Shown one piece after another: positions 24 through 36,150 of a stretch of DNA of 64,000 nucleotides. The first letter of the stretch is position 1. Every line of letters starts with the position of its first letter. The stretch is taken from positions 715 through 64,714 of the forward strand of contig CABZAL010000004.1 in the NCBI GenBank assembly GCA_902523675.1, read 5' to 3'. The notes under the pieces are model-generated. The model did not search any database and was not told where the DNA came from. It saw only the letters and a list, made by a program, of their open reading frames with translations. The stretch is from an uncultured Alphaproteobacteria bacterium. Lineage in GTDB: Bacteria; Pseudomonadota; Alphaproteobacteria; Methylaequorales; Methylaequoraceae. Position numbers and translations under genes: made by a program.

Positions 24-1253
24 TTATATTTCATTAAAAGTTTTCATCCCCGTTTTAGTTGCCTGAACTAAAGCTGCCATATTACCGGGCAAATGCTGAT
101 TATTCATCATTTTGGTGTGTGCAACTGGAATTTCATTCCACGTAAAGCATTCAGACATCAGGGGGTTTATTAATTTATTTATCATCATATTATTTGCTTC
201 ATTGGCTTGAAATAAATTAGCAAAGTGGCTACCTTGAATTCGTTTTTGTCGCATCCAAATATATCTAGCGTCCATTGTAAGATTATAACCTGATGTTCCA
301 GCGCAGATAACAACCATTCCACCTGTTTTTACCAAATAACAAGAGACCGGAAAAGTAGATTCGCCTGGATGTTCAAAAACAATATCCACGTCTTTCTTTC
401 CAGTTAAAGACCAAATATCTTTTCCTAGTACACGACATTTTTTTATAAAGTCAGAATAACCTTTTTGATCCTTTACGTCTGGTAATTTTCCGAAACAATC
501 ATAGTTTCTTCTATTTAAAACTCCAATAGCACCCAAATTCTTTACAAAAGGTATTTTGTCGTCATCAGAAATAATTCCAATCGCATTTGCTCCAACAGCT
601 TTGCAGATTTGAACTGCCATACTTCCTATTCCTCCTGAAGCACCCCAAACTAAAACATTCATTCCTGGTTTTACTGCATGAGGGGGATGACCAAACAACA
701 TTCTGTATGCTGTAGCTAAAGTAAGTGTATAACAACCACTTTCTTCCCAAGATAAATGTTCTGGTTTTTTTAACAACTGTCTAGATTGAACTGTTGTAAA
801 TTGTGCAAACGATCCATCATTTGTCTCATATCCCCAAATTTGTTGAGATTTAGAATACATAGGCTCGCCTCCATTACATTCTTCGTCATCACCATCGTCT
901 CTGTTACAGTGAATTATCACTTCATCACCAACTTTCCATCTTTTTACATTGTCTCCAACTGACCAGACAATTCCCGAGGCATCTGATCCACCTATGTGGT
1001 AACCGGTATCCTTTCCTATGACCGATATCGGAATACCCTGAGAGGCCCACACATTATTATAATTAATTCCAACTGCCATTACCATGACTAAAACTTCGTC
1101 TTTTCCTGGGTTTTGAATAGGCATTTTCTCTAACTGCATAGCTTTTTCGGGCACTCCCAACCTATTTTCTCTAATTACCCATGCGTACATTTTTTTAGGA
1201 ACGACGCCTAGGGGTGGAATTTCTCCCATCTCATAAATCTCTTTTTCAGTCAT
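24..1253 (-). CDS. ccr: crotonyl-CoA carboxylase/reductase (MDR superfamily)
   Basis: 409-aa ORF. The N-terminus YEMGEIPPLGVVPKKMYAWVIR and the Rossmann motif VWGASGGIGSMAVQ match Ccr as I remember it. It sits divergent to an acyl-CoA mutase. Confidence 0.85.
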   Translation of the reverse strand: MTEKEIYEMGEIPPLGVVPKKMYAWVIRENRLGVPEKAMQLEKMPIQNPGKDEVLVMVMAVGINYNNVWASQGIPISVIGKDTGYHIGGSDASGIVWSVGDNVKRWKVGDEVIIHCNRDDGDDEECNGGEPMYSKSQQIWGYETNDGSFAQFTTVQSRQLLKKPEHLSWEESGCYTLTLATAYRMLFGHPPHAVKPGMNVLVWGASGGIGSMAVQICKAVGANAIGIISDDDKIPFVKNLGAIGVLNRRNYDCFGKLPDVKDQKGYSDFIKKCRVLGKDIWSLTGKKDVDIVFEHPGESTFPVSCYLVKTGGMVVICAGTSGYNLTMDARYIWMRQKRIQGSHFANLFQANEANNMMINKLINPLMSECFTWNEIPVAHTKMMNNQHLPGNMAALVQATKTGMKTFNEI

Positions 1254-1399
1254 ATTTTTTCCTTATTTCAATTTTCCACTCTCTAGTTAAATTATTGAGG
1301 TTAAAAAGTAAATTTTATAGCATTGTTTGTAAAAAAAAACATAATTTTCTTGTTGAATTCAAAAATTAATACTATTTTTCAATATTATTATTAAAAATT

Positions 1400-3367
1400 A
1401 TGCAAACTAGAGACATACCTTGGGTTATTAGAACTTATGCAGGCCATTCAACCGCAAAAGCATCTAACAAACTCTATAGAGAAAATTTAAAAAAAGGACA
1501 AACTGGTTTATCCGTTGCTTTCGATTTACCTACTCAAACGGCATATGATTCTGATTTTGTTTTGTCTAAAGGTGAAGTTGGAAAAGTTGGTGTTCCAATA
1601 TCACATATTGGAAATATGATGACCCTTTTTGACAATATTCCTTTGGATAAAATGAACACCTCAATGACGATCAACGCTCCAGCTGCTTACCTTTTAGCTT
1701 TATACATCGCAACTGCAGAAAAAAGGGGAATTGAAAGAAAAAATTTATCAGGAACTACACAAAATGACATTACAAAAGAATATCTATCTAGGGGTACTTA
1801 CATTTTCCCACCTGATCCAAGTCTAAAATTAACAACTGATATAATAAATTTTACTACTAATGAGATGCCAAAGTGGAACCCAATGAACGTTTGTTCGTAT
1901 CATCTTCAAGAAGCGGGTGCCACTCCTGAACAAGAATTATCATTTGCTTTGGCTACGGCCACAGGAATTTTGGAATACATGAAAAAAAACTCCAAAATTA
2001 GTAAACCTGTTTTTGAAAAAACCGTTGGAAGAATAAGCTTTTTCGTAAACTCTGGTATGAAATTTATTACAGAAACAGCGAAGATGATTGCTTTTACAGA
2101 AATGTGGGATGAGATATGCAGAGAGAGATTTAAAATTAAAAATTCAAAGTTTTGTAGATTTAGATATGGAATGCAAGTAAATTCTCTTGGACTTACAGAA
2201 TCGCAGCCAGAGAATAATGTTTATAGAATTTTAATTCAAATGTTACCGGTTGTAATTGCTAAAAATTCAAGAGCTAGAGCTGTTCAACTTCCGGCGTGGA
2301 ATGAAGCTCTTGGACTTCCAAGACCATGGGATCAGCAATGGAGCTTAAGGCTACAACAAATTATGGCTTATGAAACAGATTTATTAGAATTTGGTGATAT
2401 TTTTAAAGGATCATCAGAAATCAAAAAAAAGGTAAATGAACTAAAAAAACAAGCTAAACATGAACTTAATGAGATTGACAAATTGGGCGGTTTGATTCCT
2501 GCTATTGAGACAGGATACATGAAAAAAAAACTAGTTCATTCACAAACCATTAGACAAAAAAATATTGAATCAGGAGAACAAATAGTTGTTGGTGTTAATT
2601 GTTTCACAGAAGGTGCAAAATCTCCATTAATGAATTCTGACGACGGTGGTTTTATGAAAGTTGATCAAACTGCTGAAAAAAATCAAATAATTAATGTCGT
2701 AGAATGGAAGAAAAAAAGAAATCAAAAAAAAATTCAATCCTTATTGAAAGAACTTTCAAATACGGCTAAAAATGGATCAAATATTATGAAAATTTCTATT
2801 GAATGTGCACATGCTGGAGTTACTACAGGAGAATGGGGAAAAGTAATGAGAGAAGTTTTCGGAGAATATAGAGCGCCAACAGGTATTGCCTCATCTCACA
2901 TACAACAAAATAAAAGGGCAGAACGGAAAGTTTTAGAAATTAGAAAACGAGTTGATATTATTTCAAAAAAAGTCAAAAAACGCCCAAAAATGCTTGTTGG
3001 CAAACCTGGTCTTGATGGACATTCAAATGGAGCAGAACAAATTGCTGTCCGAGCCAGAGATGTTGGTTTTGAAGTGGTTTATGACGGAATAAGATCAACA
3101 CCTGAGCAATTAGTCAATACTTGTATTGAAGAAAGTATAGACATTATAGGCCTTTCTATCTTGTCAGGTTCTCACATATATCTAGTTAAAGAGATAAGAT
3201 TGCTTTTAAAAAAAATAGGTCTTGATAAGCTTCCTGTTGTAGTCGGTGGTATAATACCTCCAAAAGATGAAAATAAATTACTTAAAATTGGTGTTAAAGC
3301 TGTTTTTACGCCAAAAAATTTTCAAATTGAAGACATAATGACTAGAATTGTAGATATTTTAGAATAA
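1400..3367 (+). CDS. ecm: B12-dependent acyl-CoA mutase, fused catalytic and cobalamin-binding domains; likely ethylmalonyl-CoA mutase
   Basis: 655 aa. It has RTYAGHSTAKASN...GLSVAFDLPTQ and a C-terminal DxHxxG motif (GLDGHSNGAEQ). The Ecm call over Mcm rests on size and on adjacency to ccr. Confidence 0.75.
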   Translation: MQTRDIPWVIRTYAGHSTAKASNKLYRENLKKGQTGLSVAFDLPTQTAYDSDFVLSKGEVGKVGVPISHIGNMMTLFDNIPLDKMNTSMTINAPAAYLLALYIATAEKRGIERKNLSGTTQNDITKEYLSRGTYIFPPDPSLKLTTDIINFTTNEMPKWNPMNVCSYHLQEAGATPEQELSFALATATGILEYMKKNSKISKPVFEKTVGRISFFVNSGMKFITETAKMIAFTEMWDEICRERFKIKNSKFCRFRYGMQVNSLGLTESQPENNVYRILIQMLPVVIAKNSRARAVQLPAWNEALGLPRPWDQQWSLRLQQIMAYETDLLEFGDIFKGSSEIKKKVNELKKQAKHELNEIDKLGGLIPAIETGYMKKKLVHSQTIRQKNIESGEQIVVGVNCFTEGAKSPLMNSDDGGFMKVDQTAEKNQIINVVEWKKKRNQKKIQSLLKELSNTAKNGSNIMKISIECAHAGVTTGEWGKVMREVFGEYRAPTGIASSHIQQNKRAERKVLEIRKRVDIISKKVKKRPKMLVGKPGLDGHSNGAEQIAVRARDVGFEVVYDGIRSTPEQLVNTCIEESIDIIGLSILSGSHIYLVKEIRLLLKKIGLDKLPVVVGGIIPPKDENKLLKIGVKAVFTPKNFQIEDIMTRIVDILE

Positions 3368-6513: not shown

Positions 6514-7119
6514 TTATCTTACAAATAAATAAAAAATAAATATTAACAACAATATAAAGCTAATAACATTTATATTTTTTTCTACTGTTTCTTTGATACT
6601 TTTTCCATATCTAAAAAACAAGTAACTGACCAGTGTAAATCTCGCCCCTCTAGAGATAATTGAACATATGATAAATATAAGTAAGTTTAAATTAAGAATA
6701 CCTGCTGATATTGCAACAATCTTGTACGGCATTGGTGTGAAGCCACCAATAATCACTAAAAACCATCCATAATTTGCAAAATTATGCTTGAATATTTTAA
6801 ACTGATTTTCAAATTTTGGATATAGAGAAATTAAATCTTGAGAGAAAGAACTCCACAAATACTGACCAATAAAATAGCCCGCAATACCTCCAAGAACAGA
6901 AAATAAAATTGTTATAGTAGTCAAAAAAAATACTTTGTGTTTATTGAAAATGATTGCTGGTGCTAAAAAAATATCAGTTGGTAACGGAAAAAAAATTGAC
7001 TCAATAAATGATATTAACGAAAGGAAAATCCATGAATTTTTTTTTTTAGTAAATTTTACAAAATGAAAATATACAAATTCTACAAATTTCATTTTAAAAA
7101 TATACACATAAAATATCAA
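6514..7119 (-). CDS. DedA/YqaA-family membrane protein
   Basis: 201 aa, polytopic, with an FFPLPTD motif. The real start may be the internal MKFVEF. Confidence 0.6.
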   Translation of the reverse strand: MIFYVYIFKMKFVEFVYFHFVKFTKKKNSWIFLSLISFIESIFFPLPTDIFLAPAIIFNKHKVFFLTTITILFSVLGGIAGYFIGQYLWSSFSQDLISLYPKFENQFKIFKHNFANYGWFLVIIGGFTPMPYKIVAISAGILNLNLLIFIICSIISRGARFTLVSYLFFRYGKSIKETVEKNINVISFILLLIFIFYLFVR

Positions 7120-7130
7120 TTAGCTAAAAA

Positions 7131-8219
7131 TTATTTATTTTCTATAACTAAATTTTTCACAAATTCACCAATCGCAAATGAGGAGGTTAATCCCGGAGAC
7201 TCAATTTCAAATAGATTTATTAAAGATATGTTCTGATTAATTTTATTATTTTGAATACAAAAATCGTTTGCGCCAATTTTTGTCCTAATGCCACTATAAT
7301 CTGGCACAAGATTTCTATCCTTAATTTTAGACCAATATTTAGATATTGATTTCTCAAATTTATTTTCTAGATTTCTACTCACATCAAAGTTTATGGACTT
7401 TAATTGTTCAGTATCTGGTCCAAAGTGAGTCTCTCCAGATAAGCAAATAGTCGAATGTATACCTAATCCATCTTTTTGGGGAATGGGATAAATTAATCTT
7501 GAAAATGGAGAATCACCTTCAAGTTTCATTTAATTACCCTTAACATACCTAATCTTTGGAATCTTAAATTGAAAATTCTTAATATTTTTAGCTACTCTAT
7601 GACTGTTGAGTCCTGAACAATTAATTAAAACTTGGGTCTTAAGTACATCATTTTTTTGGTTATTTACAATAAAGTCTATGGAATTCTGATTTATGAATTC
7701 TTCTGAAAACTCAGTATTAAATACAATTGTTCCAACATTAGTTTCAACATCTATTAAGAAGTTAGCCATAAGTTGATGAACATCTACTATTCCAGTTTCT
7801 CTAGAAAACAAACCACCAGAACCATTCAACTCTGGTTCCATTACTTTTAGATTTTTTTTATCTAACTCAACTAGTTCAATTCCTAATCTTTCTGCGTTTT
7901 TTTTTATAAATTTTAATTTTTGGATTTCGTCCAATGATGAGGCAACGATAATTTTTCCACATTTATCATATTTTATCCCCCTATCTTTTATAGATTTGTA
8001 AAGATAATGTCTTCCTTGAATACATAATTTTTCTTTTAAAGAGTTTTTAACATAGTATAAGCCTGCATGAATGACTCCACTGTTTCTTGAACTATTTTCT
8101 TGCCCGAATGAATTATTTTTTTCAAGAAGTAAGACTTTTTTATTCTCTGAACTTAAGAATTTAGCTATTGATAATTCAATTACCCCACCACCTACAACTG
8201 TAAATTCAAAATGCGTCAT
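7131..8219 (-). pseudogene. FAD-dependent oxidoreductase (L-2-hydroxyglutarate oxidase-like, COG0579-type) interrupted by an in-frame TAA
   Basis: The two track ORFs (7530..8219 and 7131..7529) are in the same frame and are separated only by the TAA at 7530..7532. The N-part carries the dinucleotide fold and the C-part carries IESPGLTSS. The GxGxxG motif reads GGGVIE. Confidence 0.6.
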
Positions 8220-8303: not shown

Positions 8304-10028
8304 ATGAAAAAAAAGATTAAGATGTCCAATAAAATTCTACTTAAAATTAAAAACCTTGTAAGGAAGAATAATATTAAAAAAGCCGATATTTTATTCAAAA
8401 GATTACTTAAAACGGATCAAAATAATAATAGTCTAAAACAATTTTATTTAGATACTTTATTCAAAGAAAAAAAATACAAAAATGTAACTTCAGTTTTTTT
8501 ATCATTATTTAAAAACACTGCAGATGAAGAAATACTAAAGATCTTTTCAATTTCATTGTTGGAGTTAAATAAGTTTCAGGAGGCAGAAATATATTTTTTA
8601 AAAATTGTTAAGATAAACGAAATTCCTGAAAATTTTTCCTTGCTCGCCATTTGTCAATCAAAACTAGGTAAAAATGAATTGGCCATAGAAAATTTTAAAA
8701 AAGCAATAAATATCGATCCAAATAATTCCAGATATATAATTAATTTAGCCAACCACTTTCGTGAGTCAAATCTAATTATTCAAGCTATTAACCTATTAAA
8801 AGATTTTAATAAATCTACAACAGATATAAATGTGTTAATCCTTCTTGTTGGTTTGCTGAGAGATATTCAAAAACACGAAGAGGCAATAGAATATTGTTCT
8901 GAAGCAATAAAAATTGAAAAGGAAAATAGCTACCTTATTCTAATTCTTGCCACACTTTTTTTGGAAAGTAATAATGTTGTTGAAGCAGAAAAGTTTTTTG
9001 AACTTTCATTAAAATATAGACCTTTTTTTGGGCCGGCTTTAAGAATGTTAAGTTTATTTAAAAAAATAGACGCTCAAATGCTGAGTGATCTCGAAAAATT
9101 TATTGAAAATTCAAAAAGTTTTGATCCTAATCTGATTCAACTAGGTCTAGCAGTCTCAAATTTCTTAGAGAAAAATAATAATTTTAAAAAAAGCTTTAAA
9201 TACCTTAAAAGGTTCAATAGTTACCAAAAGAAATTAACAAAATATAATATAAATTACTACAGAGAAAAGTTTGATAAAATTAGAAGGATTTACAGATTTT
9301 ATAAGGGACAAAAAAAACAATTAAATAAAGAAATTAAAGATGTTTGTCCAATATTTATAGTTGGATTGCCAAGATCAGGAACCTCTCTGATTGAGCAAAT
9401 TTTATCATCCAAAAAAGAAATTAAAAGTTGTGGTGAATTAACATTTCTAGATGATAATTTTTCAAAAATATTTAAATCAATAAAGGAAGAAGATATTTCA
9501 ATACGTATGCTTGAAATGTTAAGTACAACATATATAGATAATGTAGTAGAGAATCTGGAGGTCAAAGAAAAATTTTTTACTGACAAAATGCCATTAAATT
9601 TTTTTTATGTTGGAATAATAAATCTAATCTATCCAAGTTCTAAAATTATATTATGCAAGAGATCAAAAATGGATAATATTATTTCTCTTTATAGAAATTT
9701 TTTTCCTTCAGGTAATAATTTCAGTTACGACTTAAGTGACATTAATGATTTTTTAAAATTATATGATGAGGTTATTACTTACTGGAAAAAAGAGGGAATA
9801 GATTTCCACATTGTTGATTATGAAAGTTTAATTCGTGACTTCAAAACTGAAACGTCAATATTATTTAAATACTTAAATTTAGATGTGGATGACTCAATTT
9901 TAAAATTTCATAAAAATAAAAGAGTAGTACAGACTGCAAGCTTCCTTCAGGTTCGTAGACCTTTATTTAAAAGTTCTATTGATTCATGGAAAAAATATAA
10001 AGATGAAATAGGTTATTTAAATAATTAA
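8304..10028 (+). CDS. TPR-repeat protein with C-terminal sulfotransferase domain
   Basis: 574 aa. The N-terminal half looks like TPR repeats. The C-terminal half has IFIVGLPRSGTSL (PAPS 5-prime phosphosulfate-binding loop). Confidence 0.75.
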   Translation: MKKKIKMSNKILLKIKNLVRKNNIKKADILFKRLLKTDQNNNSLKQFYLDTLFKEKKYKNVTSVFLSLFKNTADEEILKIFSISLLELNKFQEAEIYFLKIVKINEIPENFSLLAICQSKLGKNELAIENFKKAINIDPNNSRYIINLANHFRESNLIIQAINLLKDFNKSTTDINVLILLVGLLRDIQKHEEAIEYCSEAIKIEKENSYLILILATLFLESNNVVEAEKFFELSLKYRPFFGPALRMLSLFKKIDAQMLSDLEKFIENSKSFDPNLIQLGLAVSNFLEKNNNFKKSFKYLKRFNSYQKKLTKYNINYYREKFDKIRRIYRFYKGQKKQLNKEIKDVCPIFIVGLPRSGTSLIEQILSSKKEIKSCGELTFLDDNFSKIFKSIKEEDISIRMLEMLSTTYIDNVVENLEVKEKFFTDKMPLNFFYVGIINLIYPSSKIILCKRSKMDNIISLYRNFFPSGNNFSYDLSDINDFLKLYDEVITYWKKEGIDFHIVDYESLIRDFKTETSILFKYLNLDVDDSILKFHKNKRVVQTASFLQVRRPLFKSSIDSWKKYKDEIGYLNN

Positions 10029-11468
10029 TTACTTTAACCAACTATATTCCTTGTTGATTTTTTGAAAAACAAAATCATAATTTCGATATTTAAGAAAATT
10101 ATTAATATTTATTGGCTCTCTTAATTGTTCATTATTTGTAGTTTGTGTATAGATTTTTTTTTTATAAAAGTTCAAGCATCTTTCTGTCCATTTAATACCA
10201 CAAAAATCAAAAATACTTTTTGTCGCTATTTTAGGATTCTTCAATAACTCCTCAAACTTTAAATTGTATATAAAATTTTGATTTTCAAATTTAAACTTAT
10301 TCATTATTTTGTAATATCTATCAAAATATTTTAAAATATCTTGCATTCTATGAGCCCATGGAACTGACATTAAATTATTTTTAAGTATTGAAATTATAGA
10401 TTCCTTAGGATCTCTGATACAATTTATTATCTTTGCATTAGGTAAGCATTTTTTTATCAGGTTTATAAATTCAAAGTTTTCTAATGACTTATCAGTAAAT
10501 CTATACTCAAAGTTGACATTTTTAATTTTTTTATAAATGTAGAGTATTTCATCTATTGATTTAATTTTTTTATTTTTAATATCAATTTTCCTTAATTTAT
10601 TGAAGAAAATTTGTGTTTCCTCTAATGACTGAACTTCAGATTCTGATGAACAAATTATTTTTTCTATTAGAGTTGAACCAGATCTCGGTAATCCGACAAT
10701 AAAAATTGGGTGAATTTTTTTTGATAATTTGGATTCAGAAATATGCTCTGTCGATTTTTTTATGTTAGCTATTTTTTTTTCGTAAGCCGAATTAAAATCA
10801 GAAAAATAAGTATTAAGCTTAAAATATAAATCGTGAGCAATTGTTAAATTTTTGATTTCTTCCTCAAAATTCTTATTTTCGTATTCAATTTTTCCCTTTA
10901 AAAAATAATAATAAACAGAATTTTCTGCATTTGGTTCAAGTTTCATTATTTTATTTAATTTCTCAACTTTTACTTTATTTTTGTTCATACGATAGGATTC
11001 ATAAAGAAATTTCAAATTATTGGGATTTTGTTTTCTTGCTTTTTCAAAGTATTTTGAAGATTTTTCAAATTTTCCTAAGTTTCTGTATATTCTTCCTAGA
11101 TTAAATAAAGCAACAAAATACTTTGGTTCTATTTGAATAATCTTTTTAAAAATTGTAATTGATAAATTTATATGTCCCTGTTTTTCGAAGAGGTTAGCTT
11201 TGTTATTAAGTAATAAAATGTTTCTAGAATCTATTTTTAAGCCTTGATTTATGACAGACATAGCTAAATCATTTTTATCCATCACCACAAGATTTGATGC
11301 AAGATTAATATAAAGATTTGTTATATTTTTATTAATTCTTATGGCTTTAATTAGTGCAATACAAGATTTATGGATTAGTCCAATTTTTTTATATTCTTGA
11401 GATAAATTAAAAAGTCTTTGAATGATTTCTAATGTATTTTGAAAATGTGATGTTGAATTGAGATACAT
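10029..11468 (-). CDS. TPR-repeat protein with C-terminal sulfotransferase domain (paralog of 8304..10028)
   Basis: 479 aa with IFIVGLPRSGSTL and FTDKS...ESIISILKN, which are collinear with the neighbouring paralog. Confidence 0.75.
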   Translation of the reverse strand: MYLNSTSHFQNTLEIIQRLFNLSQEYKKIGLIHKSCIALIKAIRINKNITNLYINLASNLVVMDKNDLAMSVINQGLKIDSRNILLLNNKANLFEKQGHINLSITIFKKIIQIEPKYFVALFNLGRIYRNLGKFEKSSKYFEKARKQNPNNLKFLYESYRMNKNKVKVEKLNKIMKLEPNAENSVYYYFLKGKIEYENKNFEEEIKNLTIAHDLYFKLNTYFSDFNSAYEKKIANIKKSTEHISESKLSKKIHPIFIVGLPRSGSTLIEKIICSSESEVQSLEETQIFFNKLRKIDIKNKKIKSIDEILYIYKKIKNVNFEYRFTDKSLENFEFINLIKKCLPNAKIINCIRDPKESIISILKNNLMSVPWAHRMQDILKYFDRYYKIMNKFKFENQNFIYNLKFEELLKNPKIATKSIFDFCGIKWTERCLNFYKKKIYTQTTNNEQLREPININNFLKYRNYDFVFQKINKEYSWLK

Positions 11469-11654: not shown

Positions 11655-11740
11655 GCACCTTCAGCAGAATTGGAATATGCAACAGATTCAAATCCGTTGG
11701 ACTTCCGATCATGTCCGTTCAAGTCGAACTAGTATTCCAT
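11655..11740 (+). pseudogene. degenerate full-length tRNA-Leu(CAA)-like relic
   Basis: It aligns along its whole length with the intact tRNA at 13798..13884 (gcagaattgg..gattcaaatccgttggacttc..catgtccgttcaagtcgaac). The anticodon loop is 1 nt short, the acceptor stem does not pair and the T-stem has a mismatch. Confidence 0.55.
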
Positions 11741-11742
11741 AA

Positions 11743-12897
11743 TTAAAAATTTTTAAACCTTTTTGGACTAACCATCAAAATGCTTGAAAACAACAAACAA
11801 ATAATGGCTAAAAAAATTGAACTTTTGTAGTCACCTTGAGAGTCAATAAGAATACCAGAAATAAAAGGTCCTAATATTTGACCTACACTAAATGCAGTTG
11901 TCATAATAGCAACTGAAATATTGACATTTCCAATGAATCTTTTTTTTCCTTCAACAAGTACTAAAGCAACAGATCCTGGAACTCCTAAACCATAAAGCAT
12001 GCACGAAATTAAAAAATAATTTAGATTATTACTAAAAAATAATAGTGAGACGCCTAAAGCAACTGTTAAACAAGAAAAAAATAGTAAAAAGTCTGTGCTG
12101 ATATTTTTTGATACAAAATTCCAAATGAGAACTGATGGAATCGCAAAAATTCCAACAACAATCCATGAAAGATATTGATATGAAGAAATTTCAAATAAAT
12201 CTTTTGCTATTGCACTAATAAACGTTCCAAAAATTATATACCCAACACCAAAAAAAAAATAACCAAATGCTATAGAAAAAAAATCTATCTTAAATTTATT
12301 TTCAATTGGAGCAATTTTATCGGTTTTTAAAAGTATTTGTTTCGGAGTATAAAAAATTATCGGGATACATAATAAAATTCCAATAAAACCGATAAACATC
12401 CATTGATGATTCCAAAAAAGATATGAAGTTGAAATAATCCAAACAGCTGAAGTTCCAATAACTATTCCAAGCCCAATTCCGCAAAAATGATAAAGTTGTA
12501 AGGTTTTATTTTTCATATCTTTGAAAAAATTGAACATTAGCGATATTGTAAATACAAAGCCAAAAGCACTGGATATTCCGCAAAAAAATCTTAGAGCAAT
12601 AAAGGTTTTTAAATCTGTAGTAAACCCCATTAGATAAATTGTAATTACAGAACATATTGAAGAAAAAATAATTATTTTTTTAAAATTATTAAATTTCCAA
12701 ATGATTGGAATGATTGAACCGACAAGATAACCAAAATAATTATATGAAGAAATTATCCCCATAGTGGTTGAACTTAGATCCAAGTCATTTTGCATATTCG
12801 GTAATATCGGTGTGTAAATAAACCTACCAAAACCGATGGCTATCAGAGTAGAGCAAATACCTGCTATAATAATTTTTAAGCTATTGGATGATTTCAT
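11743..12897 (-). CDS. MFS transporter (YbfB/YjiJ-like)
   Basis: 384 aa with about 12 hydrophobic segments and MFS-like organisation. Confidence 0.7.
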   Translation of the reverse strand: MKSSNSLKIIIAGICSTLIAIGFGRFIYTPILPNMQNDLDLSSTTMGIISSYNYFGYLVGSIIPIIWKFNNFKKIIIFSSICSVITIYLMGFTTDLKTFIALRFFCGISSAFGFVFTISLMFNFFKDMKNKTLQLYHFCGIGLGIVIGTSAVWIISTSYLFWNHQWMFIGFIGILLCIPIIFYTPKQILLKTDKIAPIENKFKIDFFSIAFGYFFFGVGYIIFGTFISAIAKDLFEISSYQYLSWIVVGIFAIPSVLIWNFVSKNISTDFLLFFSCLTVALGVSLLFFSNNLNYFLISCMLYGLGVPGSVALVLVEGKKRFIGNVNISVAIMTTAFSVGQILGPFISGILIDSQGDYKSSIFLAIICLLFSSILMVSPKRFKNF

Positions 12898-12933
12898 TTT
12901 TATGCTTAAATATTAAAGTACATTTTATTTATA

Positions 12934-13713
12934 TTGACTAGGAATAAATTAAAATCATTTATGCAATTATTTTTTATTTGGATAATATTAGCATATATTG
13001 GAGTTTCTTGTGTTTTGAAAGCTCATCACAAAATTGATAATCCAATAATAAAGTTTTCCGATTCACCGGAAATAAAAAATCTTTTCTTTGAATGGAGAGG
13101 TCATATTAATATTGATAGGAAAAAAAATAATCACGAAACTTATCATCAAGTTTTAGAATTTGGCAAAGGTTGGAATGAAAGACATGAAACGGATATTGAG
13201 CTTCACATTGCTGATTTAAAAAATAGTTCATTGGCAATCCCAACAATAAAATTCCAAAATAAATTTAATATCATAAATAAAAAGAATCTTTTATTTTCTA
13301 CTTTTTTTTCATTTAACTTCGCAACAGAAAAAAATGGCTCAGATCAAATAGAATATAAATTTCTATTCCAAAATAAATTTAAATATTTTATTTTTAATAA
13401 CGGTTTAGGTTTCTACAAAAACATTAATGGAGTGAATTCAAAAAAAACAGTTTTAAAATACTTTCCTTTAATTTATTTCAAAAAACCTATTATATCCGAT
13501 ATTCATTTGGCAATTGCTGGAAGTAGCGATTTCGGAAAAATTTCAAAGTTTAGTACATATACTAATCAGAAACATCAGTATGGATTAGGGATCAAAAAAT
13601 CTTTTTATAAAAATACTTCATCTGAAGTTGATTTAACAATTGCATATCTAAAAGGTCTTAATTCAAAGTCTTTTGATCAATCACTTATTTGGTATGTTAA
13701 TAAATCATTTTGA
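12934..13713 (+). CDS. hypothetical exported protein, possibly an outer-membrane beta-barrel
   Basis: 259 aa with an N-terminal signal-like segment, alternating amphipathic stretches and a C-terminal Phe. The start is TTG; an alternative ATG lies at 12961. Confidence 0.4.
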   Translation: MTRNKLKSFMQLFFIWIILAYIGVSCVLKAHHKIDNPIIKFSDSPEIKNLFFEWRGHINIDRKKNNHETYHQVLEFGKGWNERHETDIELHIADLKNSSLAIPTIKFQNKFNIINKKNLLFSTFFSFNFATEKNGSDQIEYKFLFQNKFKYFIFNNGLGFYKNINGVNSKKTVLKYFPLIYFKKPIISDIHLAIAGSSDFGKISKFSTYTNQKHQYGLGIKKSFYKNTSSEVDLTIAYLKGLNSKSFDQSLIWYVNKSF

Positions 13714-13797
13714 TAATTTTTTTAGGTTGATGACAATTTCTGGATAACCACTTTGACCTAAGATTATAATCATATATATTTTAACTTCATTACTAAA

Positions 13798-13884
13798 GCC
13801 CCTATGGCGGAATTGGTAGACGCGACGGATTCAAAATCCGTTGAACTTCGGTTCATGTCCGTTCGAGTCGGACTAGGGGTACCA
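13798..13884 (+). tRNA. tRNA-Leu (anticodon CAA), class II with long variable arm, CCA encoded
   Basis: Hand-folded. The acceptor stem is GCCCCTA/TAGGGGT, the anticodon stem is ACGGA/TCCGT with loop TTCAAAA, the T-arm is GTCCG-TTCGAGT-CGGAC, and the 3-prime end is ACCA. Confidence 0.9.
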
Positions 13885-13894
13885 TTTAAGTTTT

Positions 13895-14749
13895 TTAATC
13901 AACTTTTGTCAGTGCATTTTGTGGTTGAGTGTACTCGTCAATAATTTCATTTAACCATGAATTTTTGGGGATTAAAAATTCTTTTTCTTTTGGTACTGCC
14001 AAAGTATTAAAAGTTGCTGCATTAGCATAGTAATTATTATCATTAATAAAATAATTATTTGGGTTATACAACATAGTCGTTGCCCAAAATGGTTTATAGT
14101 TAATTGTTAAAAGATGTTTATTCAAACAATTTGGATATTCACGATGATTTTCAATCCAAATGATTGGTTTAAACTTATTAATAAAATCTTTTGCTCCTTT
14201 TAAAACACTTAATTCCATAAACTCTACATCTATTTTCAAAAAATTACATTTTTTTAAATTTAAAAAGTTATTGAGAGTTAAAGTCTTTATTTTATTTTTT
14301 TTTATTCCCTTAATTTTTGCACAATATGAATTATCATAATCTTTTTTCAAACCAATTCCTCCAAAATTACCTGGTTGGGAATAATCAAAATCATTTAATT
14401 CTAGGATTGTGTTTGTACTTCCAACCGCATTATTGAAAATCTTAACATTATTTAATTCGTTACATTTAATATTTCTTTTTAGAAGATTAAAAATAAATTT
14501 TTGAGGTTCAAAAGCGTAAACTTTTCCATTTAAACCAACCTTTTTTGCAAATGGTACAGAAAAACATCCAATGTTAGCACCTATGTCAAAAATTACATCT
14601 CCGTCATTAATAAATTTTAATATTGTCTTTAATTCTAATTCCGAATACTCTCCATATTCTCTAATTGACAACCCAATAAATTCATCAAAATGACAAAAAT
14701 GAAATATACCGTGTTTTCCATTTACCCTACCGAGAATATCTTTATTCAT
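13895..14749 (-). CDS. FkbM-family SAM-dependent methyltransferase
   Basis: 284 aa with a VIFDIGANIGCFSV motif. Confidence 0.75.
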   Translation of the reverse strand: MNKDILGRVNGKHGIFHFCHFDEFIGLSIREYGEYSELELKTILKFINDGDVIFDIGANIGCFSVPFAKKVGLNGKVYAFEPQKFIFNLLKRNIKCNELNNVKIFNNAVGSTNTILELNDFDYSQPGNFGGIGLKKDYDNSYCAKIKGIKKNKIKTLTLNNFLNLKKCNFLKIDVEFMELSVLKGAKDFINKFKPIIWIENHREYPNCLNKHLLTINYKPFWATTMLYNPNNYFINDNNYYANAATFNTLAVPKEKEFLIPKNSWLNEIIDEYTQPQNALTKVD

Positions 14750-14863
14750 ATTTATTAATTAGCAATTTCTGTTCCATTGGTAAATTAAATATACAAAGTG
14801 TGTTAATGTGTGTGTTAGTAAATTTGAAACCCGCACTCACGTTGACTCACAGAAGGAGGAAAT

Positions 14864-14922
14864 GGATTTAAAAATCCGTTGAACTTCGTTTCATGTCCGT
14901 TCGAGTCGGACTAGGGGTGCCC
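14864..14922 (+). repeat. direct repeat: copy of the 3-prime part (anticodon loop to acceptor end) of tRNA-Leu(CAA)
   Basis: aaatccgttgaacttcgtttcatgtccgttcgagtcggactaggggt matches 13836..13880 with one mismatch. Identity starts in the anticodon loop. Confidence 0.8.
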
Positions 14923-15081
14923 TCGTAAAATTCTGGTATAAAAGTTGCTAATTTGCTGAATGACCAAAAATTAGACTGAAGTGGGATTGCATTATTAGAA
15001 TACTTAATTTCCAAAAAAACCTTCAAAGATAAATTCATAGCATTAGATATCGGAAGTGCTTTAGGAACTCATACAAGTATT

Positions 15082-15771
15082 ATGAGGTCATATGGTTTAT
15101 CTGTTGATATAATTGACAAATATGAAAAAAATACTGAATTCGTAGAAGATTTTAACATACATAAGTTTAAAAAAAAATATGATTTAATTTTTTGTTCTCA
15201 CGTTATAGAACACCAAAGAAATCCAGGACTCTTTCTTGATAAAATTTTTGATTCTCTCAAAGATGATGGGGATTTTATTATTTCAGCTCCAAAACATCCC
15301 GCAGAAAGATTTGTTGAAGGACATATATTGTCCACTATTTTACCAGTTTTTTTAAAGATGTTAATATATGCTGGATTTGATTGTAAAAAAGGTAAAATGA
15401 TTTCACTTTTGGGTATTGAAAATTCATTTATTGTAAAAAAGTCCAAAAATTTCTCGCTAAAGGAAAGAGATGCGACTGGATATAAATGGACAAAAAATCA
15501 CCGAGATCGTTCGCCAATAGAATTAAGAGCAGGTTATGAGATTCCAGCTACTACTTTGTATTTAAACAACTGTGAAATATTCAAGATATATGAAAAAGAA
15601 TATGAAGAAAAAACAAATTCTGCCACTGGATTAATTTTCGATCCTCCTAGAAATTATAAAAAAAGAAATGTTTGTTTTTTTCTCAATACCTTTAAACAAT
15701 TTTGTTTATACGATTCAGCTAAAAATCTTCTAGCTAATTTCAGTGATGATTATGTGCGTTTTAACATTTAA
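15082..15771 (+). CDS. class I SAM-dependent methyltransferase, apparently 5-prime truncated
   Basis: 229 aa from the first ATG, with YDLIFCSHVIEHQRNP (post-I/II region). SAM motif I (ALDIGSALG) lies upstream of the ATG in the same frame (open from 14980) with no ATG, GTG or TTG available. Confidence 0.6.
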   Translation: MRSYGLSVDIIDKYEKNTEFVEDFNIHKFKKKYDLIFCSHVIEHQRNPGLFLDKIFDSLKDDGDFIISAPKHPAERFVEGHILSTILPVFLKMLIYAGFDCKKGKMISLLGIENSFIVKKSKNFSLKERDATGYKWTKNHRDRSPIELRAGYEIPATTLYLNNCEIFKIYEKEYEEKTNSATGLIFDPPRNYKKRNVCFFLNTFKQFCLYDSAKNLLANFSDDYVRFNI

Positions 15772-15966
15772 AAAAATCAATTATTAATCCACACAACTTA
15801 ATTAACTTTACTTAAAAACATAATCCTACCCATCCCTACTGATTTCTAGGATGATTGCTTTAGCATTCACAGAAATAATCTTAGAGATTTTGAAAAAAAA
15901 CATTGATAAAAGACATTGACACAAACAATGAAAGTCAATTTCATGAAGGGTTTTAATCATAAAACA

Positions 15967-16025
15967 ACGAATTCAAAGCTAGCTGAACTTCAGTTCATGT
16001 CTGTTGGAGTCGGACATGGGCACCA
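15967..16025 (+). repeat. second, more degenerate copy of the tRNA-Leu 3-prime part
   Basis: acgaattcaaagctagctgaacttcagttcatgtctgttggagtcggacatgggcacca aligns with the intact tRNA at roughly 80 percent identity by eye. Confidence 0.6.
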
Positions 16026-16157: not shown

Positions 16158-16985
16158 ATGGAGTTTAAAAAATTCTTTTTAGAGGATAATACATACATAA
16201 GATTCAAAAAAATAGGTAACGGTCAGCCTATTTTGTTATTGCACACTTTTAGAAATAGAATGGAATATTCTGACAAACTTGGTAATTTATTAAAAAATAA
16301 GTTTACGGTTTACTCAATTGATCTCCCTGGTTTTGGAGACTCTCCAATTAATAAAAATACAATTTACAGCTTAGGTTTTTTTACAAATTCTATCGTCAAT
16401 TTTTTAAAAAGTTTGAAAATTAAAAATCTAGTTATTGCAGGAGAATCAATTGGTGCGACTTTAGCAGCAAGTGTTTCAGTTGCACTTCCAAAAATTGTAA
16501 AAAAAATATTCATGTTTAATCCATATGATTACGACTCATATTTTGGTGAAGGAATTCAAAGAGGTAATTTTTTTGCAAAATTCATATTGTTTCACGTTGG
16601 AATTCCTGTAATTGGAAATTTTTTTTCAAGCTTAGAGAATAAATTTATATTAAAAAATGTTATGAGTGGTGGATTTTTTGACAAGCAAAACCTTACTGAT
16701 AATTATCTAAACTTACTGTGTGGATCTCTTAAAAAAAAAGGATATGTTTACCACTTTAGAAATGTGCTATCTCAATTTAATAAAAATAATGGAATTAAAG
16801 ATTTATATAAAAAAGTGTCTGTTCCAGTTGAATTATTTTATGGAAAACAAGATTGGGCAAAAGAGTCGGAGAAATTACAAACTCAAAATTTGTTAAAACT
16901 AGATAAATTTAAAACACTTAATAATTCGGCACATTTTTCTTTTTTAGAAAATACGAATGAAGTAGCAAAGTTAATTAAAATTTAA
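16158..16985 (+). CDS. alpha/beta-fold hydrolase
   Basis: 275 aa with a GESIG nucleophile elbow and an LLHTF oxyanion region. Confidence 0.75.
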   Translation: MEFKKFFLEDNTYIRFKKIGNGQPILLLHTFRNRMEYSDKLGNLLKNKFTVYSIDLPGFGDSPINKNTIYSLGFFTNSIVNFLKSLKIKNLVIAGESIGATLAASVSVALPKIVKKIFMFNPYDYDSYFGEGIQRGNFFAKFILFHVGIPVIGNFFSSLENKFILKNVMSGGFFDKQNLTDNYLNLLCGSLKKKGYVYHFRNVLSQFNKNNGIKDLYKKVSVPVELFYGKQDWAKESEKLQTQNLLKLDKFKTLNNSAHFSFLENTNEVAKLIKI

Positions 16986-17732: not shown

Positions 17733-17845
17733 TTCTAAAGTTAAATTTATATTTTAAAAATTAGTTTTATGATGCTGTTTATATTATCTAAATTAAGTAT
17801 TTAAGTGTTTTTTTAATATAGTCTTTAAAATAATTGAAACCAAAA

Positions 17846-18835
17846 ATGAGAAAAAACATTGCTATTATTGGTTCTGGATTAGCAGGAATTACTATTGCCT
17901 CAGAATTAAAAAAAAAATTCAATGTAGAAATTTTTGAAAAATCTAGAGGAGTGGGAGGAAGAATGTCAACTCGAAAGGAACATCCATTCATTTTTGATCA
18001 TGGAGCGCAATTTTTTAAGATTACAACAACTGATTTCATGAATTTCGTTTCAGAACTACTTACGGAAAGAGTAATTTTACCGTGGAAATTCAAACTTGCA
18101 CATTTTGAAGGTATTAAATTAACTAAAATTAAAATTATAGATAATGAAGATAAATTTTTTGTGGGAGTTCCGAATATGGATTCTATTATAAAATATCTGG
18201 CAAAGAAGATTGATGTAATGATTAATACTAAAATTGAAAAAATAATTAAAAAAAAAAACGACTGGTTTTTATATGATCAAAATAATAAAAGCTATGGTAA
18301 ATATGACTGGGTGATTTCGACTCTTCCAGCAGAACAATCAAAAGAGTTAATTTCCAAAACAATCTCTTTTTACCCATTACTCAAAAAGATTAAAATGAAG
18401 GGTTGTTTTTCTTTGATGATTGGTATGAATGACCCAGTAAGCTTAGATTATGATGCTGCTATAATCAAAGACAATGATGTTGCTTGGTTAGCCATAAATA
18501 ATTCAAAACCATTAAGGACAGAAAAATATAGTTTATTAATAAATTCTTCATATGATTTTGCTGCTAAAAATATTAGTTCTCCGAAAGAGAAAATTATAAA
18601 CCATTTGTTAGATACAACTAGTGATGTAATTAATCGTCAAATTCCTGAATCAGCTATGATAAGACTTCATCAATGGAGATATGTTGAAGCAGAAAAACAC
18701 CCAGATGATAATTTTTTTATTGATTCCCAAAATAAAATCGGGATATGTGGTGATTGGTTTGTAAATAGTAGAGTTGAGGGTGCGTTTATTAGTGCTAGTA
18801 ACCTCTCAAAAGAGATTATTAAACACAATTTTTAA
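17846..18835 (+). CDS. NAD(P)/FAD-dependent oxidoreductase (renalase/amine-oxidase-like)
   Basis: It has an IAIIGSGLAGI dinucleotide fold and RMSTR. The track start at 17834 is TTG; an in-frame ATG lies at 17846. Confidence 0.7.
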   Translation: MRKNIAIIGSGLAGITIASELKKKFNVEIFEKSRGVGGRMSTRKEHPFIFDHGAQFFKITTTDFMNFVSELLTERVILPWKFKLAHFEGIKLTKIKIIDNEDKFFVGVPNMDSIIKYLAKKIDVMINTKIEKIIKKKNDWFLYDQNNKSYGKYDWVISTLPAEQSKELISKTISFYPLLKKIKMKGCFSLMIGMNDPVSLDYDAAIIKDNDVAWLAINNSKPLRTEKYSLLINSSYDFAAKNISSPKEKIINHLLDTTSDVINRQIPESAMIRLHQWRYVEAEKHPDDNFFIDSQNKIGICGDWFVNSRVEGAFISASNLSKEIIKHNF

Positions 18836-21416: not shown

Positions 21417-23111
21417 TCAAATATTTAACAAAGGATCTGGTATTTTAAAATAGTAGATAAGCGTTAAAACTATCAATCCAGAAAAAATTAAATAATATGC
21501 TGTAGGTATTATTGTAATTCTAAGAATTTGACCTTCTTTTCCCAATAAACCGACGGTTGCCGACGCTGCTACTACATTGTGAATTGCAATCATATTTCCT
21601 GCAGCTGCCCCTACACTCTGTGCTGCAACCATTAGTGCACCAGATAACCCTAATAGGTTTGCAGTTTCGAATTGAAATTGACTTAACATTAAGTTACTTA
21701 CAGTATTAGATCCAGCAAGAAATGCTCCAACTGCACCTATTAAAGGTGAAACCAATGGATAAAAATTTCCCATTAACCTAGACATTCCCTCAGCCATAGC
21801 TATTGGCATGCTCACAATTTCTTGAGAATTCAATCCTGAATTGATCATTATTCTTACAAGAGGTATTGTAAAAATTAAAACAAAACCAGCACTAAAAATT
21901 GTTTTTGTCGAATCGCGAATTGCTTTAAATATTTCCTCATGCTTCATTTTGTGAATTATGAATGTTACTAGACATACAAATACCAATATACCTCCGGGTA
22001 AATAAAAAAACTTCAAACTTGCATTGATTTTTTCTTCATTAAAAATGCTATTAAATTCTAAATCTATTGATTTTAAAAAATCTGATAAAGGTTCATAAGT
22101 TCTCGAGAACACAAGTAAAAATGCAAGGAAAACATATGGAAACCACGCTAAAACATTACAAATTTTTTTTTGAGATATGCTTTCAAGTGATGTTTCCATA
22201 TTTCCCATCCACGATGTTGGCCAATCACTAGAATGAGCAAAATCCCAAGAATCTTTTGGAATTAAAACGTTTCTTTTTATTGCGAAAATTACAATTGATA
22301 GTCCAGTCAACCCACCAATTATTGAAGGAAATTCTGGCCCTAAAAAAATACCAGATAAAAGATATGGTATTGTAAAGCTAAGTGCTGCAAAAATTGCAAA
22401 AGGAAATATTGATAGTCCTTCAGTCCATGATTTATTTTTTCCAAAAAATCTTGTCATGATAACTATTAACATAATAGGCATAAAAGTTCCGCAAATTGCA
22501 TGAATTATTGCAACCTCTGATACTATAAGATTAAAAAAAGATTCCCATTGAACGTTTTTAAGTTCTAATTCTTCAGATATTGTAATCTTATCTAACCCAC
22601 CTTGAACTCCCACAAGCATTGGTGTACCAACAGCACCAAAGGAAACAGGTGTGGATTGGATCATCAAGCCAAACACAACTGCTGGCAAAGCCGGGAATCC
22701 TACGGCTACCATTAATGGTGCTGCTACTGCTGCTGGCGTTCCAAAACCTGAAGCACCTTCTATAAAACAACCAAACAACCACGCAATCAGTATTACTTGA
22801 ATTCTCCTATCTGAACTTATCTGTGAAAAACCTTTTCGGATAGTTAACATCGCCCCAGAATATTTAAGCGTGTTTAGAAGCATGATAGCTCCGAAAATAA
22901 TCCATAGAATACCTACTGTAATTATTAAACCTTGAATAGTCGAAGCCAAAACTCTTAAAAAGCTCATTTCCCAAACAAAAAGCGCGATACCTACTGTAAA
23001 TAAAAACACAAATGGCATCGCAAATTTTGCTGAAATTCTCAAACCAACAAGAAGGATTCCGGCTAATAGAATAGGACCAAAGGCAAAAAGAGGTAAAAGA
23101 TCAATTAACAT
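21417..23111 (-). CDS. lctP: L-lactate/glycolate permease (LctP family)
   Basis: 564 aa, polytopic, with [16 protein letters not shown], which is typical of LldP/GlcA. Confidence 0.8.
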
Positions 23112-36074: not shown

Positions 36075-36150
36075 TGGCGATCTTATCTGGACTTGAACCA
36101 GAAACTAATCCTTAGGAGGGACTTGTTATATCCAATTTAACTATAAGACC
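36075..36150 (-). tRNA. tRNA-Arg (anticodon CCT)
   Basis: Hand-folded from the reverse complement. The acceptor stem is GGTCTTA/TAAGATC, the anticodon stem is AGTCC/GGATT with loop CTCCTAA, the T-arm is TCTGG-TTCAAGT-CCAGA, and the 3-prime end is GCCA. Confidence 0.9.

Follow-up and report, generated by a model that had tools for sequence, protein, structure and literature searches.

A tRNA-Leu(CAA) island of a SAR11-like genome, probably built by serial insertion of ~8.2-kb circular elements that carry an integrase

In Prochlorococcus, genomic islands are built by tycheposons, small integrative elements that target tRNA genes, and related elements have been reported in Alphaproteobacteria (bioRxiv 10.1101/2020.12.28.424599). 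Another group, the VEIMEs, comprises monomers of <5 to ~17 kb that encode tyrosine integrases, have no capsid genes and appear as concatemers on long reads; they were found integrated in Pelagibacter and in other Alphaproteobacteria (Eppley et al. 2022, PMC9618062). For the SAR11 pangenome, partial tRNA repeats were described in four islands, with "no canonical mobile genetic elements" and one integrase only (Molina-Pardines et al. 2025, PMC11796062). We analysed here a window of 64 kb (the whole stretch of DNA introduced above, ~28% G+C) in which a tRNA-Leu(CAA) gene stands within an array of its own partial copies and of small gene cassettes. The host is called SAR11-like (Pelagibacteraceae-type), a label taken from the base composition and from the names of the relatives, not from a phylogeny. 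Compared with the islands of Molina-Pardines et al. (PMC11796062), the present locus adds a family of elements whose attachment site (attP) matches its tRNA copies, as well as integrase remnants at the locus itself. We consider it probable, at roughly 0.8, that this is an additive island seeded by tRNA-Leu(CAA) and built by the serial insertion of circular elements of ~8.2 kb that carry an integrase.

ARAGORN called two tRNAs in the window: tRNA-Leu(CAA) at 13798-13884 on the + strand (29.1 bits with the Rfam tRNA model), where an earlier note on this DNA had seen an intact gene, and tRNA-Arg(CCT) at 36075-36150 on the - strand, of which no partial copy occurs anywhere in the window. The sequence of tRNA-Leu(CAA) is identical in ~30 related genomes; we read this gene as the attB and attL site and as the seed of the island. 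Its 21-nt T-arm core, TCATGTCCGTTCGAGTCGGAC, occurs at four sites, all on the + strand: 11709 (2 mismatches), 13853 (0), 14891 (0) and 15995 (2); of 100 dinucleotide-preserving shuffles of the window, none contained any match. Downstream of the intact gene, the near-perfect relic down1 (14860-14922, +) reproduces the 3' part of the tRNA, from the anticodon stem-loop to the 3' end (nhmmer 14860-14921 with tRNA positions 26-86, E 4e-11; relic profile E 5e-20). It agrees with the tRNA from G31 on; its loop reads TTTAAAAA, i.e. one C>T and one additional A, and its mismatches are one in the variable arm and two among the final four bases. Further out, the relic down2 (15964-16025, +) is an older and more decayed copy of the same 3' part (15965-16021 with positions 26-83, E 2e-6; relic profile E 9e-15). 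The copy upstream, a pseudo-tRNA-Leu hereafter named psi (11655-11741, +), is of full length (11657-11732 with positions 3-79, E 1e-9); its anticodon loop has 6 nt, its acceptor stem is unpaired, and ARAGORN made no call there. The copies are spaced by 980, 1045 and 2058 nt.

Thus the three copies lie on the strand and at the places where the earlier note had put them, and the alignments agree with its description of each: one near-perfect, one more degraded, one full-length and degenerate. The same note had considered that the copies might turn out unrelated to the tRNA on proper statistics; the E values of the three nhmmer alignments, between 4e-11 and 2e-6, speak for the relationship. A relic profile hidden Markov model (HMM) built on 70 relic copies recognised exactly these three and the intact gene in the 64 kb, and no other site. 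The absence of an integrase, also noticed before, extends to the whole window: a six-frame search by HMM and phmmer with the relevant tyrosine and serine recombinases gave nothing better than E ~0.8. Besides, in four marine metagenomes (X1, X2, X3 and X5) the bin that contains the tRNA and relic sequence (13776-14009) has 10-15x the depth of its neighbours, which fits a multi-copy sequence common to many strains.

Related loci were collected by a degenerate-core scan with one genome per species, which gave 49 tiles of 8 kb (designated L with a number). One of them, L002 from an Acidimicrobiia soil metagenome-assembled genome (MAG), was left out as a chance match; the others come from marine alphaproteobacterial single-amplified genomes and MAGs, 32 assemblies in all. 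Never more than one intact tRNA-Leu(CAA) was found per assembly. At least one relic occurs in 26 of the 32 assemblies and at least three in 12, with 65 relic or pseudo copies altogether, these counts being lower bounds because tiles were fetched only on an exact match to the core. Within each tile the copies share the strand of the tRNA, and their median spacing is 1.35 kb; in L022 the tRNA is followed by five relics within 6 kb. The 3'-type relics start at tRNA positions 20-28 and are exact from ~G31, in the anticodon stem-loop, so that their boundary falls at the canonical crossover region, the anticodon loop, as had been proposed from the window alone. One copy of another kind, L018 7598-7676 (-) on a 745-kb MAG contig, matches positions 1-79 only and has its 3' acceptor strand replaced by unrelated sequence; it is possibly a disrupted tRNA or an assembly artefact.

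The sequences that precede the relics fall into discrete classes, A to E, which recur between genomes. In the window, down1 is preceded by an element-derived arm of class C (14750-14859, +), whose flank ACTCACGTTGACTCACAGAAGGAGG is as in the class C flanks of L015, L038, L044 and L042; the arm is 75-81% identical to those of L007, L037 and L042. Before down2 stands the P arm of the L050/L057 element family (15777-15937, +), the sole hit of a P-arm profile HMM in the window (E 1e-30); it is 78.6% identical to the arm of L050 and has homologues in ~20 loci, and the flank of down2 is a decayed class B. Since the identity to the tRNA starts at the anticodon stem-loop, and since element-derived arm DNA precedes each of them, down1 and down2 are attR scars.

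An alignment (A5) of the ~270 nt upstream of class A and class B relics displays the order of these arms: first comes a block of ~100 nt that all of them conserve, then a pair of 12-nt direct repeats in tandem, then ~25 class-specific bases and finally the tRNA core. The 12-nt repeats vary in concert by subfamily—GTTTGATACTAA, GTGTGATAGTAA, CATTGACACCAA or CATTGATACAAG—and those of the window (15901-15924) read CATTGATAAAAG/ACATTGACACAA. Because short repeats that vary in concert lie here beside a recombination core, we regard them as candidate arm-type sites of the integrase. The ~100-nt block (15810-15900 in the window, columns ~60-175 of A5) is conserved across classes and genomes, more than the sequence around it; promoter-like sites are not in excess in this block (17 against 16.5 expected), and no RNA structure with covariation support was found in it. 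On the other side of the core, a P'-arm profile has 10 sites in 9 tiles, all of which follow a tRNA or a relic directly. The window has no such site, and both of its cassettes lack a P' arm. Nor did profile searches bring out more decayed relics, or additional P or P' arms, in the rest of the window.

Integrase remnants occur in several relatives at the position homologous to the tRNA locus of the window, namely in L014, L010, L033, L001 and L034. The closest, L014 (AG-337-E20), is 95.6% identical to the window across the uncharacterised ORF (open reading frame) and the tRNA, and has directly 3' of the tRNA a truncated integrase ORF; the SAM-like domain of the integrase is present, the protein is cut at the start of the catalytic domain and it is fused to a C-methyltransferase fragment. 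The same integrase N-terminus, 99% identical, is found in L010. In L033 and L001 the tRNA is followed by a ~90-nt P' arm, then by the first ~75 nt of the integrase gene (int), then by unrelated DNA.

Contigs of the element, long-read ones, were reached through a protein-database search with the integrase N-terminus. L055 has 8,235 nt with an exact terminal overlap of 55 nt and maps as a circular permutation of one unit; L056 and L051, from other samples, are further permutations. L050, a contig of 27 kb, holds 3.3 units head to tail with a period of 8.24-8.32 kb, the tRNA 3' core being at 1, 8259 and 16502. The order of the unit is: tRNA core (~positions 22-87), P' arm, int (393 aa), three ORFs without known family, an AAA+ ATPase that resembles a clamp loader (phrog_168, E 2e-46), uncharacterised ORFs, a small serine recombinase (Resolvase, E 1e-37) and a P arm of class A. 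Read across the closed circle this makes an attP: class A P arm, 3' core of tRNA-Leu, P' arm, followed by int. The 8.2-kb unit has no capsid, terminase or conjugation genes; neither Pfam nor PHROGs recognised an excisionase, a primase or a helicase on it, several of its ORFs having no family match.

The same attP layout with an intact integrase is present on contigs of Illumina quality: L052, L053 (TARA), L057 and L058. The intact integrases of L052, L053 and L057 have 393 aa. In L057 the arm is of class B with CATTGACAC repeats, the core is identical to the tRNA of the present lineage, and the intact integrase that adjoins it is 90% identical to that of L052. Taken together, elements whose attP matches the relic-plus-arm structure, with an adjacent integrase, are found in L055, L056, L051, L050, L052, L053 and L057.

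The family of this integrase is large, with at least 501 cluster representatives of 390-415 aa in marine data. Many members lie on contigs of 8-10 kb at most; a few are chromosomal, and these have a Resolvase gene and tandem integrases nearby. The SAM-like domain (Phage_int_SAM_5) was recognised in 23 of 24 members and the catalytic domain PF00589 in 9 of 24 (best E 5.8e-10), the Pfam match of the query itself being to the SAM-like domain only. In the family alignment (A4, with P0012, the integrase of L052 185-1366), R236, K266, R341 and Y376 are invariant; an invariant Y338-x-x-R341 replaces H-x-x-R, and the second His/Trp position is apparently Asn, the equivalence of these catalytic residues being set by the order of the motifs and not by structural superposition. 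A sequence search of the PDB with the single integrase gave 0 hits and the family profile only a weak match to topoisomerase IB (E 0.1). The AlphaFold model (pLDDT 87.5), searched with Foldseek against the PDB, has by contrast its top 20 matches all among tyrosine recombinases (E 6e-8 to 1e-4, probability 1.0), including XerA, the Tn1549 Int, XerH, lambda Int, IntI and Cre. Thus, from its predicted fold, the element integrase is a tyrosine recombinase. PF00589, we observe, misses most members of the family despite this clear predicted fold.

Cassettes bounded by att copies recur in relatives at 77-91% identity, with orders and neighbours that differ. The unit 11679-13721 of the window is found at ~77.5% identity behind an att copy in five loci, the intact tRNA in L040 and relics of differing classes in L009, L032, L038 and L045. 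The unit 13828-14916, which carries a gene of the FkbM family, is 88.7% identical to L037 6259-7350, the fourth position of the L037 array. The unit 14868-16015, with a Methyltransf_23-type gene (MT23), is 90.6% identical in L030 and ~85% in AG-892-K07 (L019), where it stands right after the intact tRNA; the order there is c0 (a conserved left-flank gene cluster), tRNA and MT23 cassette, so that this genome has neither the FkbM cassette nor anything of what separates c0 from the tRNA in the window. The earlier note had suggested comparing the syntenic locus among relatives, an identical arrangement in all of them being what would speak against repeated insertion; cassette polymorphism proves to be extensive.

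The relics also display a gradient of decay. Among consecutive pairs, the downstream relic is the lower-scoring one in 26 of 30 (binomial p = 6e-5), and the relic score falls with the distance from the tRNA (Spearman -0.46, p = 0.001). This bears out the proposal that older scars lie further out and are more decayed. Of the two cargo genes that follow the tRNA in the window, the proximal one is intact, whereas the distal one has become a pseudogene. The former, the FkbM-family methyltransferase of the tRNA-proximal and youngest cassette, occupies 13895-14749 (-; Pfam Methyltransf_21, E 1e-16). The latter, an S-adenosylmethionine (SAM) methyltransferase at 14960-15771 (+; Methyltransf_23, E 1.5e-8), was compared with its intact 273-aa homologue of L030: it has lost 10 nt just after the ATG (14960) and has TGG>TGA at 14977-14979, and its first usable ATG (15082) is downstream of SAM motif I. 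An intact MT23 allele with the 10 nt was seen in the marine metagenome run X3. Between the pseudogene and down2 lies a non-coding stretch of ~195 nt.

From these data we infer, on the basis of sequence, the following route. In the attP of the element, the 3' part of tRNA-Leu(CAA), which runs from the anticodon stem-loop to the 3' end, would lie between the P arm and the P' arm, with int following the P' arm. At the anticodon loop the integrase would recombine this site with the tRNA of the chromosome; the tRNA would be rebuilt at the left junction (attL), and the displaced 3' part, behind a P arm, would form the right junction, i.e. the attR or relic. Any new insertion would enter beside the tRNA and shift the older ones outward. 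Deletions would then strip the integrase, the replication genes and the P' arm; cargo, P arm and relic would stay, and decay in their turn. In the window, the FkbM cassette with down1 would be the younger remnant, and the MT23 pseudogene with the L050-family arm and down2 the older. Catalysis by this particular integrase, the order of the events and the deletion route to single-gene cassettes are the conditional parts of this scheme. Since the window has no recombinase, the enzyme would arrive in trans with transient elements of ~8 kb. The earlier note could not see what keeps such a hotspot active without an integrase, and this supply by visiting elements offers an answer. Its idea of repeated tRNA-targeted insertion by a tyrosine integrase gains support from the relic boundaries, the arm classes, the matching elements and the integrase remnants. 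The reduction of islands to gene remnants, which it also proposed, is supported by the truncated integrases and by the units made of arm, relic and cargo, whose origin by deletion would be the step read from them.

Several observations weigh against this serial-insertion reading. The class C arm of down1 has no complete element partner in the data. In the 49 tiles, no whole element is integrated between a tRNA and a relic, remnants only being found there. The cores of L050, L052 and L055 differ from the host tRNA in the stem of the variable arm, and in L050 and L052 in the T stem too, with compensatory changes, so that these elements target the tRNA-Leu(CAA) of a sister lineage. A core identical to that of the host is carried by L057 only, the left part of which is a cargo-like ORF, and this contig might be a chromosomal junction, not a free attP. 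L050 begins within tRNA-like sequence and its units differ by ~5%, so that the contig could represent tandem copies in a chromosome instead of a free concatemer. From the IMG/VR and INPHARED collections the tRNA core and the integrase are both absent. Finally, the upstream full-length pseudo-tRNA is not explained by a mechanism that displaces 3' parts.

The mosaic of the cassettes can be accounted for in other ways. Homologous recombination via relics and arms probably contributes to it, and SAR11 is known for very high rates of homologous recombination. It could even be the main source of the present arrangement, the integrase having made the scars and the shuffling having passed through the relics (55-65 nt, perfect) and the ~100-nt arm blocks; this we hold as a tentative proposal, distinctly short of an even chance, which would complement serial insertion. 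DNA would then enter from other cells, and the hotspot could stay variable with no integrase at work. Such recombination would explain that cassettes of 77-91% identity begin and end at att copies with neighbours that differ, that relic cores are near-identical between genomes, that the arms have a block in common, and that the cassettes of the window lack the P' arms needed for canonical excision by an integrase. Metagenome unitigs go in the same direction, with the MT23 cassette behind a perfect relic and another upstream neighbour; being short Logan unitigs, in which joints from the tRNA to downstream sequence are ambiguous and perfect relics align best to the intact tRNA, they are taken as supporting data only. 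On the other hand, direct repeats in one chromosome favour deletion over gain, and the decay gradient suits ordered insertion better than free shuffling. The integrase-less cassettes might instead be still mobile, in the manner of CIMEs or of integron cassettes, and be excised, reinserted or captured through the integrase that a visiting 8-kb element supplies in trans. They are indeed small (median spacing as above), carry single genes, have their att copies in one orientation and occupy varying positions in the arrays; many relics are perfect; and L033 retains both arms, in the order tRNA, P' arm, int stub, c13, P arm, relic. Nevertheless most cassettes, both of the window included, are without a P' arm, the integrase stubs indicate deletion derivatives and not designed minimal units, no excised cassette circle was seen, and perfect relics can be due equally to a recent origin from the host tRNA, all of which makes present mobility unlikely. 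Cluster c13 (~400 aa), which often lies beside relics, was examined as a possible recombinase; no Pfam family matches it, the protein is rich in Cys, and we treat it as cargo.

Two further explanations concern the origin of the copies themselves. Podoviral pelagiphages of the HTVC019P type enter tRNA-Leu(TAG), tRNA-Leu(TAA), tRNA-Cys and tRNA-Arg of SAR11 with cores of 11-46 bp (bioRxiv 10.1101/410191), so the relics might be scars of temperate phages of that kind. BLAST against INPHARED with the tRNA and with its 3' half gave unrelated phage tRNAs only; IMG/VR gave 0 hits with the exact and with the degenerate core, and no relative of the integrase; there are no phage structural genes in the window, the arrays or the elements; and the arms match a non-phage element of 8 kb. 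As the searches of these viral collections with core, tRNA and integrase returned no related match, the phage origin was dropped, and we now find it hardly credible. The other explanation, that the copies are decayed tandem duplicates of the tRNA made without any mobile element, draws on the full length of the upstream copy and on similar decayed full-length copies in L041 and L021. The downstream copies, however, have no 5' part; their break falls at the anticodon stem-loop, and arms of element type precede them; for down1 and down2 duplication is refuted by arm homology, it could still hold for the upstream copy alone, and as an account of the copies in general we judge it very unlikely.

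The upstream copy asks for a separate account. The displaced ends of which the earlier note spoke are borne out for down1 and down2; the full-length psi is not a displaced 3' end. The MFS cassette that follows psi in the window follows the intact tRNA in L040, and psi therefore marks a former position of the functional tRNA. It has derived bases in common with the psi copy of L021, and both lie downstream of a gene for an oxidoreductase of the DAO family. Further upstream leftovers exist: one of full length in L041, and in L024 a 5' half (2647-2690, ~positions 1-41, ending just past the anticodon loop) 2.4 kb upstream of the intact tRNA.

A possible source of such leftovers is L054, a sister element of 9.6 kb whose integrase shares 47% identity with the L052 enzyme. 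The attP of L054 (4480-4700) is composed of a P arm, tRNA positions 1-39 and a P' arm, i.e. it contains the 5' half and not the 3' half of the tRNA; the overlap between this 5'-type attP and the 3'-type relics is the anticodon loop. Over 28 nt, the P arm of L054 agrees exactly with the arm that precedes the class D relics of L024 and L016, and is 93% identical to that of L041. Integration of such an element would produce a 5' leftover at the left junction and a rebuilt tRNA at the right one; where the target was a 3' relic, a complete tRNA could be regenerated there, which we put forward as a hypothesis for the psi copy. Upstream of the intact tRNA of the window no L054-type arm was matched, and the 84 nt preceding this tRNA match only L014, so that the 5'-type explanation keeps its hypothetical status. 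A broader proposal builds on it: the arm-plus-relic units would be live sites, the tRNA-Leu(CAA) locus a population-wide, integron-like platform without a recombinase of its own, served in trans by the 8-kb circles, and the functional tRNA would "walk" by means of L054-type elements, leaving behind pseudo-tRNAs like that at 11655-11741. This we find doubtful, and give it little weight. L054 also encodes, at 167-1999 (+), a protein of 610 aa in which a ParB domain at the N-terminus is combined with a DruA-like (Druantia) domain; the gene may serve in defence or in partition.

The other genes of the window complete the picture of the island. On its left, the conserved flank gene of cluster c0 (6514-7119, -) encodes a VTT/DedA-domain protein (Pfam VTT_dom, E 1e-11), with a DsbB gene to its left; c0 adjoins or is near the tRNA in 13 loci, and in many relatives the tRNA comes directly after it. 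Among the island cargo is the DAO-family FAD oxidoreductase gene (7131-8219, -), named lhgO-like before and aligned by read-through to an intact 361-aa homologue of L021 (Pfam DAO, E 2e-53), which sits there between a relic and a pseudo-tRNA. The window gene has an in-frame TAA (TTA on the + strand, 7530-7532) where the L021 protein has Tyr, and it is probably a pseudogene. This stop at 7530-7532 is either a pseudogene mark, in a type of genome that has usually very few, or a sequencing error. Two TPR-sulfotransferase genes, cargo as well, follow upstream of the pseudo-tRNA, at 8304-10028 (+) and 10029-11468 (-), both with Sulfotransfer_3 (E 2e-27 and 6e-28) and TPR repeats; their homologues (cluster c25) come immediately after the tRNA in L020 and after a relic in L030, and they are missing in AG-892-K07. 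Between psi and the intact tRNA, the cassette 11743-13713 is made of an MFS_4 transporter gene (11743-12897, -; E 1.5e-61) and of the uncharacterised 259-aa ORF (12934-13713, +). On the right, an alpha/beta hydrolase gene (16158-16985, +; Abhydrolase_1, E 2.6e-13) is the first past the last detectable relic, followed by an SDR gene and by more metabolic genes; as far as can be seen it is the right border of the island. Beyond it, an amine-oxidase-like gene (17834-18835) and a lactate permease gene (21417-23111) are observed, which have relics on their flanks in L022, L036, L039 and L042, and the right end of the island may formerly have been further out than it now looks.

In the relatives the array cargo is diverse: phoA, OlsB-like proteins, acyltransferases, DNA methyltransferases with HNH nucleases, a WYL regulator, a radical-SAM enzyme, a 2OG oxygenase and a lactate permease. 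A cassette of phoA, an OlsB-like GNAT and an acyltransferase (c21, c23 and c31) recurs in L015, L017, L039, L043 and L044, and looks like phosphate-stress cargo as in Prochlorococcus islands. In L016 (3781-7530, oriented) two C5 DNA methyltransferases surround a 464-aa ORF that appears by eye to be like an HNH nuclease, and in L006 and L027 (c45, c44) a Dam-type methyltransferase has a partner ORF, an arrangement like restriction-modification. The WYL regulator is in L025, and a T5orf172 protein in L044.

Thus the island resembles, in its organisation, known tycheposon islands and the concatemeric VEIMEs. With tycheposons it shares small tRNA-targeting elements in a streamlined marine host, an inward tyrosine integrase at the end of the element by the att site (here core, P' arm and int, with AAA+ ATPase and Resolvase genes present), a small serine recombinase among the hallmark genes, and islands of several units with partial copies of the island tRNA between them. 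Integrase fragments, scattered partial tRNAs, newer insertions that displace older ones outward, and cargo genes that serve nutrient acquisition (here phoA and ornithine-lipid-type genes) or defence are likewise common to both. Differences are the SAR11-like host and the target, tRNA-Leu(CAA), the likeness being one of layout and genes; the AAA+ ATPase as sole replication-type gene, with primase or helicase and excisionase not recognised; and Y-x-x-R in place of H-x-x-R. With VEIMEs, the 8.2-kb unit and the long-read contig of 3.3 concatemeric units are in common. Encapsidation, however, defines VEIMEs, whereas the present element is known from its sequence; IMG/VR gave no hits, and genes for phage interference or packaging were not recognised here.

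Other systems compare in part. The CIMEs related to the ICESt elements of Streptococcus thermophilus are integrase-less, att-bounded tandem units derived from autonomous elements by deletion; both of their att sites stay functional, and mobilisation in trans is open to them. Our arrays are alike in their tandem units bounded by att repeats, integrase-less and apparently deletion-derived, and unlike in that the window cassettes have no P' arm. With integrons they have in common a one-directional array of short, mostly single-gene cassettes, each closed by a recombination-site repeat; by contrast, IntI, attI and attC are missing here, tRNA 3' halves with lambda-type arms make up the repeats, a separate element carries the recombinase, and the target is a tRNA gene. 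The HTVC019P-type pelagiphages use tRNA cores at the 5' end or in the middle of the gene, and restore the tRNA with a partial 5' copy or with a tRNA of their own (bioRxiv 10.1101/410191). Entry into SAR11 tRNA genes, tRNA-Leu included, by a tyrosine integrase is a shared feature; the tRNAs concerned are TAG and TAA and not CAA, the phage genomes are of ~35-40 kb with structural genes, and no arm or core sequence matches ours.

What makes this locus of interest is the matched pair of circle and scar, the two attP polarities within one integrase family, and a full-length pseudo-tRNA that this mechanism does not explain. SAR11 is the most abundant bacterial clade in the ocean. It is usually said to lack mobile genetic elements, though its flexible islands turn over fast. 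The present data would tie an island of SAR11 type to a concrete vector, a family of ~8.2-kb circles with an integrase that is matched to the scars. They would extend the model of tycheposons and VEIMEs from Prochlorococcus to a SAR11-type lineage, with defined sequences of attP, attB and integrase, and would give a testable mechanism for the gain of cassettes, among them phosphate-stress, cell-surface and defence genes, in a streamlined genome.

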